A stretch of 33,631 nt of DNA from Opitutales bacterium (lineage in GTDB: Bacteria > Verrucomicrobiota > Verrucomicrobiia > Opitutales > PNEW01): positions 1 through 33,631 of the forward strand of contig CBDANS010000001.1 in the NCBI GenBank assembly GCA_965197745.1. Direction: 5' to 3'. Below the pieces are notes generated by a model that was not told where the DNA came from, made no database searches, and worked only from the letters and a program-made list of their open reading frames with translations. This document shows, in pieces, positions 8,400-24,255 of this stretch. How positions within the stretch are numbered: the stretch's first letter is position 1; each line of letters begins with the position of its first letter. The position numbers and the translations under genes were made by a program.

Positions 8400-8408
8400 T
8401 TGGTCGGG

Positions 8409-9387
8409 TTACACAAACTGGTCCACTGGGAGAGTTAGTCTGGAAAGGTTAATGTTGAAGTTAAGTTGGTAGAGGAAGTCAAGACTTGGGCGCAATGAGG
8501 GCGTAGCCCGAATGGAGCCCGAGCCTTCGGTCTTGAGGTTTTCAGCGAAACGTTGTGGAGTAATATTGCCGAGGCTGCGGTGGGGTCGAACATGATTGTA
8601 AAGCCAGCGCCAATCTTCGATCACCACGCGGGCTTCGGTCAAAGTCCACAGTTGTTCACGATTTAGACACTCCTCGCGAAAACGGGCATGGAACGATTCG
8701 ATGTATCCGTTCTGCCAAGGGCTTCCTGGTTCGATATAGAGGGTATTGATTTTCATCGCAGTTAGCCAGGCTCTCAATTCACTTCCAATAAATGGCTTCG
8801 CATGTCGTCGCTTCGCTCCTCGGAACCGATCCATTGTCGCTGCGAATATATTTTGGCGGCCCATGAGGGTCGAGCAGTTTTTGCATGACCCCGCGCACCT
8901 TCTCCGCATTGATATGGCGATCGACATGGATCACCCGACACTCGCGGGTGTACTCGTCAAGGACGGTCAGCATTTTGAGATTCCCACCGCGGACCGTCTT
9001 ATCGTGGATAAAGTCCCAGGTCCAAACATGGTCGGGATGTTCGGCCTTCGTCGGCAGCCCGGTGGAGACACCCCTGCGCCGGCGTCTTGGCTTGCGTGGG
9101 GGGATCGCCAGACCCAGTTCACGTCGCAGACCTTGCACGAGCCGTTTACCCACCTGCCAGCCTTCGTCCTTCAACAGCTTCGTGATCTTCGGATAGCCCC
9201 ACCTTGCGTATTGCCGTGATAACCGCCTTACTGCCGCCTTCAGTTTCGTTAGCCAGGCATCCGGATACTTCGCCCGATATGCATAGGTGGAGCGGTGCAG
9301 GTGAAAGTATCGGCACGCTCCACGTATCGAACACTGGCCCCGGGCCACAAGTCTCTCTGCCACTTGCCGCTTGTGCCCAGGGCTTAC
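8409..9387 (-). pseudogene. IS3 OrfB DDE transposase, frameshifted by an insert after DNGS
   Basis: WTWDF, LTVLDEYTREC and RSDNGS in one frame; PGSPWQNGYIESF..RFREECL and YNHVRPHRSLG in another. Confidence 0.9.
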
Positions 9388-9406
9388 TACCGAGCATAAG
9401 CGACAT

Positions 9407-9673
9407 CTACCATTTTTTTTCGAGCGTCTCCTGCAGAATCTCTATCCCCAGCAGCTTGTCCGCCAGCATCCGTTTTAACCGCGCGTTCTCCTTCTCGAGT
9501 TCCTTCATCCGCTTGGCCTGGTTGACATCAATCATCCCAAACTCACGTTTCCAGCGGTGGAAGGTCTGTTCGCTTATGTTGTTCTCGCGGCATACTTCCA
9601 GGATCGTTTTCCCTTTGTCTGCCTGCCGCAGCATCCGTATCTTCTCTTCGGTTGTATAGCTTTTGCCTTTCAT
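9407..9673 (-). CDS. IS3 OrfA (HTH_Tnp_1)
   Basis: YTTEEKI..LRQ...VCRENNISEQTFHRWK...KELEKENARLKRMLAD. Confidence 0.92.
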   Translation of the reverse strand: MKGKSYTTEEKIRMLRQADKGKTILEVCRENNISEQTFHRWKREFGMIDVNQAKRMKELEKENARLKRMLADKLLGIEILQETLEKKW

Positions 9674-9740
9674 TGTCTGAGTCCTTTCTAGGTGTCCCAG
9701 ACTAACTTTTCAAGTGGACCAGTTTTCGTGGTCACGACCA

Positions 9741-21870: not shown

Positions 21871-22206
21871 CTATCCATATTGCATGATCTGATTGATAGC
21901 CCTCGTGAACTGTTTCCAATAGGCTGTTTCTTCTTCGACCTGTTTTTTTCCTGACTTGGTCAGCTTATAAAATTTGGCTCGGCGCTTAGTCTCCGTGATG
22001 CCCCATTTAGCTTTAATTAATCCTCTTTCCTCCAAGCGATGGAGAGCCGGATAGAGCGACCCCTGTCGGATCCTCAATACGTCCTTGGAAATCAGTTCAA
22101 TTCTCTTCGCTATGCTGTAGCCGTGCCTGTCTCCAGAGCGTAGGATACGCAGAATGATCAAGTTTAAAGTTCCTTGTAATAATTCAGTTTTATTTAATTC
22201 CATCAC
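21871..22206 (-). CDS. PadR-family transcriptional regulator
   Basis: LLQGTL.L.IL, HGYSI, GSLYPALHRLE, RRAKFY.LT..G. The start could be ATG at 22203. Confidence 0.95.
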   Translation of the reverse strand: MMELNKTELLQGTLNLIILRILRSGDRHGYSIAKRIELISKDVLRIRQGSLYPALHRLEERGLIKAKWGITETKRRAKFYKLTKSGKKQVEEETAYWKQFTRAINQIMQYG

Positions 22207-22288: not shown

Positions 22289-23611
22289 TGGTCAGGTTAC
22301 GCAAACTGGTCCACCGGGAGAGTTAGTCTGGAGAGGTTAATGTTGAAGTTAAGTTGGTAGAGGAAGTCAAGGCTTGGGCGCAATGAGGGCGTAGCCCGAA
22401 TGGAGCCCAAGCCTTTGGTATTAATGTCTTCAGCGAAGCACCGTGGGGTGATATTGCCGAGGCTGCGGTGGGGTCGGACATTATTGTAAAGCCAGCGCCA
22501 GTCCTCGATCACCACGCGGGCTTCGGTCAAAGTCCATAGCTGTTCACGGTTTAAACACTCCTCGCGAAAACGGGCATGCAACGATTCGATGTATCCGTTC
22601 TGCCAAGGGCTTCCTGGTTCGATATAGAGGGTTTTGATTTTATTTTCATCGCAGTTAGCCAGGCTCTCAATTCCTTTTCAATGAATGGCTTCGCATGTCG
22701 TCGCTTCGCTCCTCGGAACGGAACCGTTGTCACTGCGAATATATTGTGGCGGCCCATGACGGGCAAGCAGTTTTTGCATGATACCGCGCACCGTTTCCGC
22801 ATCGATATGGCGATCAACATGGATCACTCGACACTCGCGGGTGTACTCATCGAGCACGGTCAACATTTTTAAACTGCCACCGCGGACCGTTTTGTCGTGG
22901 ATAAAATCCCAGGTCCAAACCTGGCCGGGATGTTCGGCCTTGGTCGGCAGCCCGGTGGAAACACCCCTGCGCCGACGTCTTGGCTTGCGTGGGGGGATCG
23001 CCAGGGCCAGTTCGCGTCGTAGACGTTGCACGAGACGTTTACCCACCTCCCAGCCTTCGTCTTTCAACAGCTTCGTGATCTTCGGATAGCCCCACCTCGC
23101 GTATTGCCGTGATAACCGCCTTACTGCCGCCTTCAGTTTCATTAACCAGGCATCCGGATGCTTCGCCTTATACGCATAGGTGCAACGGTGCAGCCGAAAG
23201 TACCGGCACCCCGCTCGCATCGAACACTGGCCCCGAGCCACAAGTCTCTCTGCCACTTGCCGCTTGTGCCCAGGGCTTACAGTTTTTTTTCGAGGGTCTC
23301 CTGCAGGATCTCTATCCCCAGCAGCTTGTCCGCCAGCATCCGTTTTAACCGCGCGTTCTCCTTCAAAGAGCTCCTTCATCCGCTTGGCCTGGTCGACATC
23401 AATCATCCCAAACTCACGCTTCCAGCGGTGGAAGCTCTGTTCGCTTATGTTGTTCTCGCGGCATGCTTCCAGGATCGTTTTTCCTTTGTCCGCCTGCCGC
23501 AGCATCCGTATTTTCTCTTCAGTTGTGTATCTTTTGCCTTTCATTGTCTGAGTCCTTTCTAGGTTACCCAGACTAACTTTTCAACTGTCCCAGTTTTCGT
23601 GGTTACGACCA
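22289..23611 (-). mobile_element. IS3-family insertion sequence, copy 2 (diverged from copy 1), inactivated
   Basis: IRs TGGTCAGGTTACGCAAACTGGTCC and TGGTCGTAACCACGAAAACTGGGAC. It has a +1 frameshift in orfA (ELFEGER), the same insert after DNGS, and a small indel near 22640. Confidence 0.93.
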
Positions 23612-24255
23612 CTGCCTTTATCATTGATTGAGATTCCGTTTTATCTCTATATTTGGGAATTATGCATTTAAGTTGATGGACTACCATTCCTGCTGGAGTT
23701 CGCTTATACTGTATGAGCGCGGAGTGCGTCGATTCTTGTGAGATGGAAAGCAACTCACTGATCTATAAAAAACAGGTTTGTGTTCCAGGAAAGATGTCAG
23801 CTGACAAGTAAACTATAGATATTAATTAAAAGGAGGGGCCAAAAAGGAAATTTAAATAAAGGAAAGTATTAAATAAGATGAATCCTCAAACTATTAGTTC
23901 AATAGTGCATTTTACCTGTGATCAGAAAAACTAATCTGAAACCTGAGCTTCTGAATCTGTTTGATCGGGGTATCTGGAGAATCCATTACAGCTACCGGTG
24001 CGATTAAACTTCCCTATACTGGGCAAATAAATAATTGTTTTTTCTCACTAGAGTTACTTAATTGAATTTAAATCCACTCAAAAATTCTTGCCCGATTCCT
24101 GGCTGAAGATCAACAAAAAAGTATGATTCCTGCCAAACATTTTGAGGCAAAGTCAGGAAATCAGAGGAAAATATAAATTATTATTGTACCGTTATTTAAG
24201 TGTAACTAATTGTTATTAAGTAGCTTATAAGGCATTATTGAGTCCCGTTCATAGT

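Follow-up and report, generated by a model that had tools for sequence, protein, structure and literature searches.

Two IS3 copies of the window and their shared block

The window analysed here, that is the whole stretch of 33,631 nt from Opitutales bacterium (GCA_965197745.1, contig CBDANS010000001.1, positions 1 to 33,631, forward strand), carries on its minus strand two IS3-family copies with ends TGGTCGTG...CCCGACCA, one of 1340 bp at 8401..9740 (copy 1) and one of 1323 bp at 22289..23611 (copy 2), which share 94% identity (mean column identity). Profile searches recovered the two-ORF layout of IS3, with an HTH in orfA and a DDE/rve core in orfB. In copy 1, orfA (9407..9673, minus strand) matches HTH_Tnp_1 (E 4e-20), and orfB is recovered in pieces that match HTH_21 and rve (E 6e-16, the match being cut at profile position 76 of 102), with a further piece matching rve_3 (E 2e-27). 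An A8 slippery run can be read in the sequence of copy 1 at 9413-9420 (minus strand); such a run, together with orfB in the -1 frame, is present in two intact copies of the same genome that are empty at the site described below (C7:1353548 and C7:407131). Copy 1 bears two inserts, designated here types A and D, and copy 2 bears type A only. The type D module, TACCGAGCATAAGCGACATCTACCA, lies at 9388..9412 on the plus strand, opposite to the gene and directly 3' of the A8 run, where it replaces AG for a net gain of 23 nt and thus takes orfB of copy 1 out of the -1 frame. The corresponding site of copy 2 (23281..23282, plus strand) is empty and reads cttac-AG-tttttttt. Copy 2 belongs to a cluster of 18 copies (cluster 0) and has a private 5-nt duplication.

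Both copies contain the 34-mer GTTCCGAGGAGCGAAGCGACGACATGCGAAGCCA, which a search of the window placed at 8793-8826(-) and 22686-22719(-) with 0 mismatches, 0 of 100 shuffles being matched. The codons around the block are AGC GAC AAT GGA TCG (34-mer) TTT ATT in copy 1 and AGT GAC AAC GGT TCC (34-mer) TTC ATT in copy 2, with five synonymous differences between them. The 34-mer holds two GCGAAGC heptamers, at its positions 11-17 and 26-32, and it breaks the frame, the 0 frame of copy 2 reading SDNGS-VPRSEATTCEAIH-stop; the +1 frame through the block is open (FRGAKRRHAKP), and an SD-like GAGGAG can be read within it. The preliminary description of this DNA had singled out an identical, frame-breaking 34-nt block with two GCGAAGC motifs at two sites with five synonymous flank differences, and both the window search and the codon reading bear it out. 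The two mini-hairpin motifs of the block are stable according to a passage of PMC13037366. In nearest-neighbour DNA folding, the block alone or with its flanks did not rise above shuffles (z +1.35, -0.72, +0.95), scores that say little on the mini-hairpins because the parameters omit the sheared G·A pair of GCGAAGC. Six loci, namely the two IS copies of the window and four SRM/MITE loci, were also compared with Rfam (E up to 1), and the only match, to a snoRNA, was a chance one.

The limits of the insertion were set by comparison with empty alleles, which read GGTTCC-GAG-TTT-ATT or GGCAGT-GAG/GAA-TTC-ATT and encode SDNGSEFI: type A is a 33-nt unit replacing the AG of a GAG (Glu) codon, for a net gain of 31 nt. 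The element proper spans 8793-8825 in copy 1, position 8826 being the G of the original GAG, and 22686-22718 in copy 2. A contig of run X15 provides an independent confirmation of this 33-nt register, since it skips 22686-22718 and carries CT in their place, that is AG on the gene strand. The net gain of 31 nt given in the preliminary description thus stands, whereas the inserted unit is the last 33 nt of the 34-mer, whose first G is native to the GAG codon; the uninterrupted protein, expected at that time to read DNGS(P/A)FI, turned out to read DNGSEFI.

The insertion of the IS copies themselves left matching 4-nt flanks in 6 of 35 filled family-1 copies, with a distinct 4-nt sequence in each of the six, and in 1 of 5 empty copies; none of 40 IS copies had a 3-nt target duplication, the duplication being of 4 nt where present. 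In copy 2 (window 23330-23400), a 1-nt change from CTCGAGAAGG to CTCTTTGAAGG upstream of the slippery site sets the orfA N-terminus directly in the orfB frame. The resulting natural OrfA-OrfB fusion variant, in which the leucine-zipper segment is swapped for ~30 unrelated residues, occurs in filled and in empty copies (cluster 0, cluster 2 and the empty copies C4:137754 and C7:1902161). Elsewhere in the window, partial matches to the transposase C-terminus at 24173 (+) and 33193 (-), with 75% and 46% identity, correspond to decayed or different IS fragments, and a short ORF (MELNKTELLQGTLNLIILRIL..) adjoining copy 2 at ~21900-22200 (-) presumably resembles a PadR-type regulator.

Distribution, empty sites and rate of change of type A

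Across the whole genome (4.45 Mb, 7 contigs, bacterial SSU), the 34-mer has 73 matches when 3 mismatches are allowed, of which 51 are perfect, 19 differ at one position, 2 at two and 1 at three, and the reversed-pattern control has 0. All 73 copies lie at one codon of an IS3-type orfB, after ..SDNGS and before FI... At 97% identity or more, the host IS copies form four clusters, with 18, 15, 9 and 9 members, and the other 22 are singletons. Identity across the filled copies ranges from 70 to 100%, going down to ~70% between groups, and two IS superfamilies are represented, which differ in their inverted repeats and in the sequence adjacent to the block (FIEKELRAWL versus FIAHQVQQWL). In the sister genus, type A was found in two of three genomes, with 12 copies in G001 and 14 copies in G002, and it was absent from 37 other genomes of the order. 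All 11 matches in a species-representative collection belong to one record, an Opitutales MAG, and a pattern of 25 specified bases had 0 matches in the JGI metagenomes. The earlier reading would have been refuted by an insert restricted to the two window copies or arising from chimeric assembly. The genome-wide and between-genome search speaks against both, with the copy numbers given above, and blocks with point variants were recovered in three independent assemblies and in contigs of four separate runs. Nothing was found in favour of an artefact of assembly or sequencing, and we consider its probability negligible.

Empty and filled sites stand at 8:73 in this genome, 4:12 in G001 and 56:14 in G002 (counts from a degenerate empty-site pattern and from the 34-mer), and 90% of the A sites of this IS-rich genome are filled. 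In the assembly, the IS3 A-site codons lacking the block are GAG (7), GAA (1) and TAG (1), the last being a stop in place of GAG at the insertion codon of an empty copy on the minus strand of C7 (~1466425) in which a D module is present as well. A canonical orfA, the A8 site and a full-length -1 orfB are all found in two empty family-1 copies, two further empty copies are of the fused variant, and no fully insert-free family-2 copy was found in this genome. Given these intact empty copies and the predominance of the empty form in G002, the block is dispensable. Moreover, four empty copies lie at about zero distance among nine filled copies, all nine with the A28A variant, and this nesting argues for a recent gain with subsequent multiplication of the filled copies. 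The contigs of the sequencing runs comprise family-2 filled forms and, in run X15 over window positions 22555-22793, an empty allele (depth 22) beside a filled contig (depth 4.9). The empty contig of X15, a metatranscriptome from another study, has cluster-0-type flanks, which in the present genome are restricted to filled copies; hence, the A site appears polymorphic between populations.

Counted on a tree of the 73 filled copies, changes amount to 0.5 per site in block A and to 2.55 per site in 879 flanking columns, that is an about five times slower change in the block than in the flanking coding sequence, and no 34-column window of the flanks is as low (minimum, 1.15). The changes of the block on the tree number 17, including 11 at two CpG positions, and one or the other GCGAAGC motif is destroyed by recurrent G-to-A changes on 11 branches. 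In the 19 copies that are at least 5% different from their nearest relative, 12 block differences were observed against 36.9 expected, the expectation being half the flank distance. A perfect block A is retained even in copies whose reading frames are stop-riddled. As a cis-signal would decay in such dead copies, the invariance is more readily explained if the block is younger than its host IS copies or undergoes homogenisation at the DNA level. A functional cis-signal would nevertheless also be expected to be as strongly conserved as A.

IS chimeras were found to cross over exactly at A, with a family-1 left part and a family-2 right part in G001 and the reverse arrangement in this genome; the 34-bp identity patch is a crossover point between IS families. 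A further mosaic was observed in cluster 1 (15 copies, e.g., C6:1443168), in which a family-2 5' part with A and B is followed by a family-1-like ESFHARFREECLNREQLWTLTEARVVIEDWR segment and continues into reverse-oriented family-1 sequence, the mosaic itself having been amplified.

A family of short hairpin modules

Type A belongs to a family of modules of 25 to 45 nt, with a 5' T(A/T)CCGAG, a GCGNAGC-type or longer covarying hairpin and a 3' GACAT..CCA. The five types that interrupt IS3 (A to E) have the 5' T(A/T)CCGAG and an AAGCGAC(GAC)A core in common, and like type A the four others replace AG: type B (44 nt) at the LD-E-YTRE site, in frame and with a TGA; type C (43-44 nt) at the PW-Q-NGY site, in frame in family 2; type D (25 nt) in antisense just 3' of the A8 slippery run, with an offset of +23; and type E (37 nt) at the RLRD-E-CLN site, with an offset of +35. 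Among the 82 copies that retain the A site (73 filled and 9 empty), B is present in 32, C in 11, D in 6 and E in 9. A stands alone in 34 of these copies and together with B in 26, and the rest have other combinations, with up to four inserts per copy.

In its generic form, TACCGAG-(hairpin)-CGACATCTTCCA, the family is also found outside IS3. Modules with exact termini number 42 in this genome and 65 and 82 in the sister genomes, and two other families of the order have 6 and 5; there were 0 in 36 other relatives, 0 in reversed-pattern controls and 0 in 400 other sampled genomes of the phylum. The inner stem shows compensatory changes (GGCGAAGCC, GACGAAGTC, AGCGTAGCT, TCCCGCAnnTGCGGGA). Generic modules of 24-35 nt are nested in SRM-type repeats, in heptamer arrays and in a third repeat family. 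Within inverted repeats built as GTCATTGCGAGG-(hairpin)-GACGNNGC^A(A)^TCCAGG, they take a single exact position, and they also occur in CCCTGAA heptamer arrays and in a ATAGCCAC..AAAGCAC repeat. The SRM-type inverted repeats with modules bracket GIY-YIG genes of 90-130 aa as well as many gene-less derivatives. Junctions are exact to the base: in 151 filled/empty pairings, which are many-to-many, non-independent and drawn from four contexts, the empty site is AG in 71, AA in 50, A in 17 and other in 13. The modules have neither terminal inverted repeats nor target duplications, one or two bases being replaced. An identity as MITEs was rejected on account of these missing inverted termini and of the replacement, instead of duplication, of 1-2 bases.

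The IS3 orfB is the only real coding sequence hit by modules. Of 89 modules, six are spanned by ORFs: four of these are IS3-antisense frames, one is a spurious ORF over an SRM/MITE copy, and the last is a host gene in which the regex match is false; none of the 89 lies in frame within a real host gene.

Outside the window, this genome has GIY-YIG genes (~90-130 aa) between GTCATTGCGAGG-(variable hairpin)-GACGNNGCAATCCAGG inverted repeats, for instance at C7:483646-483864, C7:1545659-1545877, C7:1542004-1542222 and C6:787949-788140. There are 8 matches to PF01541, and at least 4 small ORFs are bracketed by SRM-type repeats, the assignment being at the level of PF01541 and not of cd10448. The sequence CATTGCGAGG occurs 101 times in the genome, chiefly in gene-less MITE-like copies. 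Long tandem arrays of the CCCTGAA heptamer lie at C6:1441388-1441490 and at minus-strand index 56880-56980 of C6; elsewhere in the heptamer context, a generic module replaces AA.

Origin of the block and its relation to known short elements

Altogether, type A is a non-coding module of a lineage-restricted family of ultra-small hairpin elements. We propose, with a probability of about 0.6, that the block is a site-specific, homing-like nano-element, by which IS3 copies are inactivated and left to persist as non-autonomous elements. Of the two explanations offered at the outset, one was a tiny site-specific mobile element, and it is now supported and extended by a module family that occupies five fixed sites of IS3 as well as three other repeat contexts and offers many pairs of filled and empty sites. 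According to this proposal, type A would enter orfB of IS3 after the first base (G) of the Glu codon in SDNGSEF, in the region of the second catalytic Asp, with loss of the AG. Translation of the window copies would stop soon after this Asp, ahead of the third catalytic residue, and with such a truncated reading frame a filled copy would make no transposase. Filled copies could persist and multiply as non-autonomous IS elements with transposase supplied by the few intact empty copies. Against this putative mobilisation in trans, 4-nt flanks match in only 6 of the 35 copies considered, and no fully insert-free copy of family 2 was found here. Type A would reach the same codon in diverged IS lineages by copying at the DNA level, either through site-specific re-insertion or through break-induced short-patch conversion from a filled paralogue ("homing"), and such copying would keep it near-invariant as the flanks diverge, as suggested by the rate contrast. 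Two properties limit this proposal. Type A occurs in IS3 only and always as the same sequence, as would be expected of copying between paralogues more than of free transposition, and five fixed sites are more than a target as short as (G/C)^A(G/A)^N can account for.

As to a possible enzyme, none could be linked to the modules, which speaks against the proposal. No gene is bracketed by modules, save the Ssn-like genes whose own repeats are interrupted by them. The genome has one Y1-transposase gene (PF01797), with no module inside its 1.9-kb locus, and a RAYT-type enzyme was rejected given this single Y1_Tnp gene and its lack of association with modules. An RNA intermediate copied by a reverse transcriptase, an idea taken from the frequent 3' CCA, was likewise rejected, no RVT_1 match being found in the 92%-complete genome. 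Ssn-type GIY-YIG nucleases are the only genes associated with the modules, and indirectly so, their flanking repeats being the commonest home of modules. A more speculative form of the proposal, to which we give little credence for now, would make the modules the smallest homing-type mobile DNA: a nuclease, for which an Ssn-type GIY-YIG protein is the candidate, might cut single-stranded DNA at (G/C)^A(G/A)^N, two bases would be lost, and a 25-45-nt module would be copied from a filled paralogue through arms of ~8 nt, thus acting as a self-spreading "vaccine" against IS3. If this were true, homing modules would turn autonomous transposons into dead, non-autonomous copies, at 90% of the sites in the present genome.

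The main rival to a mobile nano-element is a single insertion of 33 nt into an ancestral IS3, with no mobility of its own, the block having then spread by IS transposition and been homogenised by ordinary recombination or gene conversion. Ordinary recombination after one insertion could indeed also yield the distribution of A, which is one sequence at one site, with variants that follow the IS lineages (A28A in 9 of 9 cluster-2 copies), and recombination among IS families is frequent, as seen in the chimeras at A and in the mosaic cluster 1. However, between families differences in the flanks are already seen at 6 nt on the left side of the block and at 8 nt on its right side, so that conversion tracts would need limits lying nearly exactly at the block. 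Moreover, in other repeat families generic relatives whose inner hairpins differ share exactly the same positions, a sign that site-specific insertion took place repeatedly and independently, and related modules occupy five separate sites of one gene. A one-off event thus strikes us as somewhat unlikely, while being the alternative to be taken most seriously. A system of the host or of a symbiont, e.g., the SRM/Ssn nuclease apparatus, might also deploy the modules so as to disable IS3 transposase genes preferentially. Such a service to the host would agree with orfB as the only real coding target, with the high filling of A sites in an IS-rich genome and with the co-occurrence of modules with Ssn-like genes and their repeats. 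Nevertheless, selection against insertions in host genes would explain their absence equally well, most generic modules sit in non-coding repeats, and the mechanistic tie to Ssn is conjecture; a silencer of this kind therefore seems quite improbable.

The second explanation offered at the outset was a maintained switch, in which expression of the transposase would need removal or skipping of the block by ribosomal bypass, +1 frameshift, RNA processing or reversible DNA excision. The slow change of the block, its open +1 frame, its SD-like GAGGAG and two stable mini-hairpin motifs, and the clusters formed by near-identical filled copies would all suit a switch, but it gained no support and we judge it very unlikely. 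Empty copies are intact and outnumber filled ones in G002, many copies hold 2-4 inserts, and the sister inserts would need other solutions, B being in frame with a TGA, C in frame, D at +23 in antisense and E at +35. The GCGAAGC-breaking G-to-A changes are also recurrent, as counted above. For a bypass, the sole repeated take-off/landing candidate, GCG at positions 16-18 and 26-28, lies inside the block; as the two frames, incoming and outgoing, have no other codon match, the gap is not bounded by a take-off/landing pair. For an excision, the product allele is absent from the assembly, in which no IS3 A site has the allele expected from removal of 31, 33 or 34 nt, and a single cut-and-join of the filled sequence cannot recreate AG, so that the empty allele is a separate DNA allele. 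The precise removal that had been suggested for DNA and RNA data was not seen in the contigs of four runs (three RNA libraries), where 31-, 33- or 34-nt removal products were looked for. The missing 31- or 34-nt skip is weak evidence, since contigs hide rare variants, strand and expression level, and the parts of the stretch uncovered in X16 and X17 are uninformative.

Several known systems resemble these modules in part. SDR4-6 of Nostoc/Anabaena, reportedly described by Elhai et al. in 2008, are said to be repeat modules of ~21-27 nt with exact insertion positions, often nested in repeats. To our knowledge, SDRs encode no protein, and we know of no mechanism for their movement. A passage of PMC4390886 places the insertion of SDR5 precisely between the 3rd and 4th base of HIP1. 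The generic modules (24-35 nt) share with SDRs the exact-position insertion, the nesting in other repeats and the lack of an encoded protein. Nonetheless, the modules described here replace 1-2 bases, reach 33-45 nt, use fixed transposase codons and belong to another phylum; judged from descriptions, their sequence probably also differs from SDR4-6. REPs with GTAG/CGTC tags, some of them lying within genes of Opitutus terrae, are reported by Di Nocera et al. 2013 (PMC3733652), and REP/REPIN elements with RAYT transposases by Bertels and Rainey 2011 (PMC3116915). Such elements are likewise stem-loops of 20-40 nt with conserved unpaired tags and covarying stems, some of them intragenic, and the Opitutales are rich in REPs. 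However, no GTAG/CGTC stands beside the module stem (termini, TACCGAG / CGACATCTTCCA), no RAYT gene is flanked by modules, and the modules insert at fixed IS3 codons.

The SRM/NTS repeats of Ssn GIY-YIG ssDNA nucleases have a GTCATT-palindrome-AATCYRG frame, as given in a passage of Chenal et al. 2025 (PMC11893778). The repeats hosting generic modules have this same frame and flank GIY-YIG genes of 90-130 aa, and types A and B share the core GAGGAGCGAAGCGACGA with them; block A itself is not an SRM, because the GTCATT and AATC arms are both missing. We know Ssn as a nuclease only and are aware of no insertion activity for it. Bypassing elements (T4 gene 60 and the mitochondrial "byps") are frame-breaking inserts of 27-55 nt in coding sequence, the byps being thought to be mobile. 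Type A is likewise a short frame-breaking insert inside a coding sequence, but the codons at its gap do not match as take-off and landing sites, one of its sister inserts runs antisense, and the interrupted IS3 gene, which shows no sign of expression, is not the functional allele, intact empty alleles existing and predominating in G002. Rickettsia palindromic elements (RPE) are small palindromic repeats that lie in frame in protein-coding genes and are translated in functional host proteins. They too are small palindromic inserts in coding sequence, whereas type A shifts the frame and the sole coding target is a transposase. RPE are named in the relevant part of PMC3733652.

A full-text search of the published literature returned no account of short modules inside IS3 transposase genes. 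It has long been asked how repeats as short as a few dozen bases, such as those of the REP, SDR or SRM kind, move. The present system offers well over 100 pairs of filled and empty sites, with junctions known to the base and 1-2 bases consistently replaced. Inactivation of its coding target can be scored, and its three related genomes have between 20% and 90% of their sites filled. The mechanism of insertion, and any link to Ssn-type nucleases, can therefore be tested directly. In genome annotation, gene callers will list block-bearing IS3 genes as frameshifted pseudogenes, or the blocks may be taken for recoding signals.
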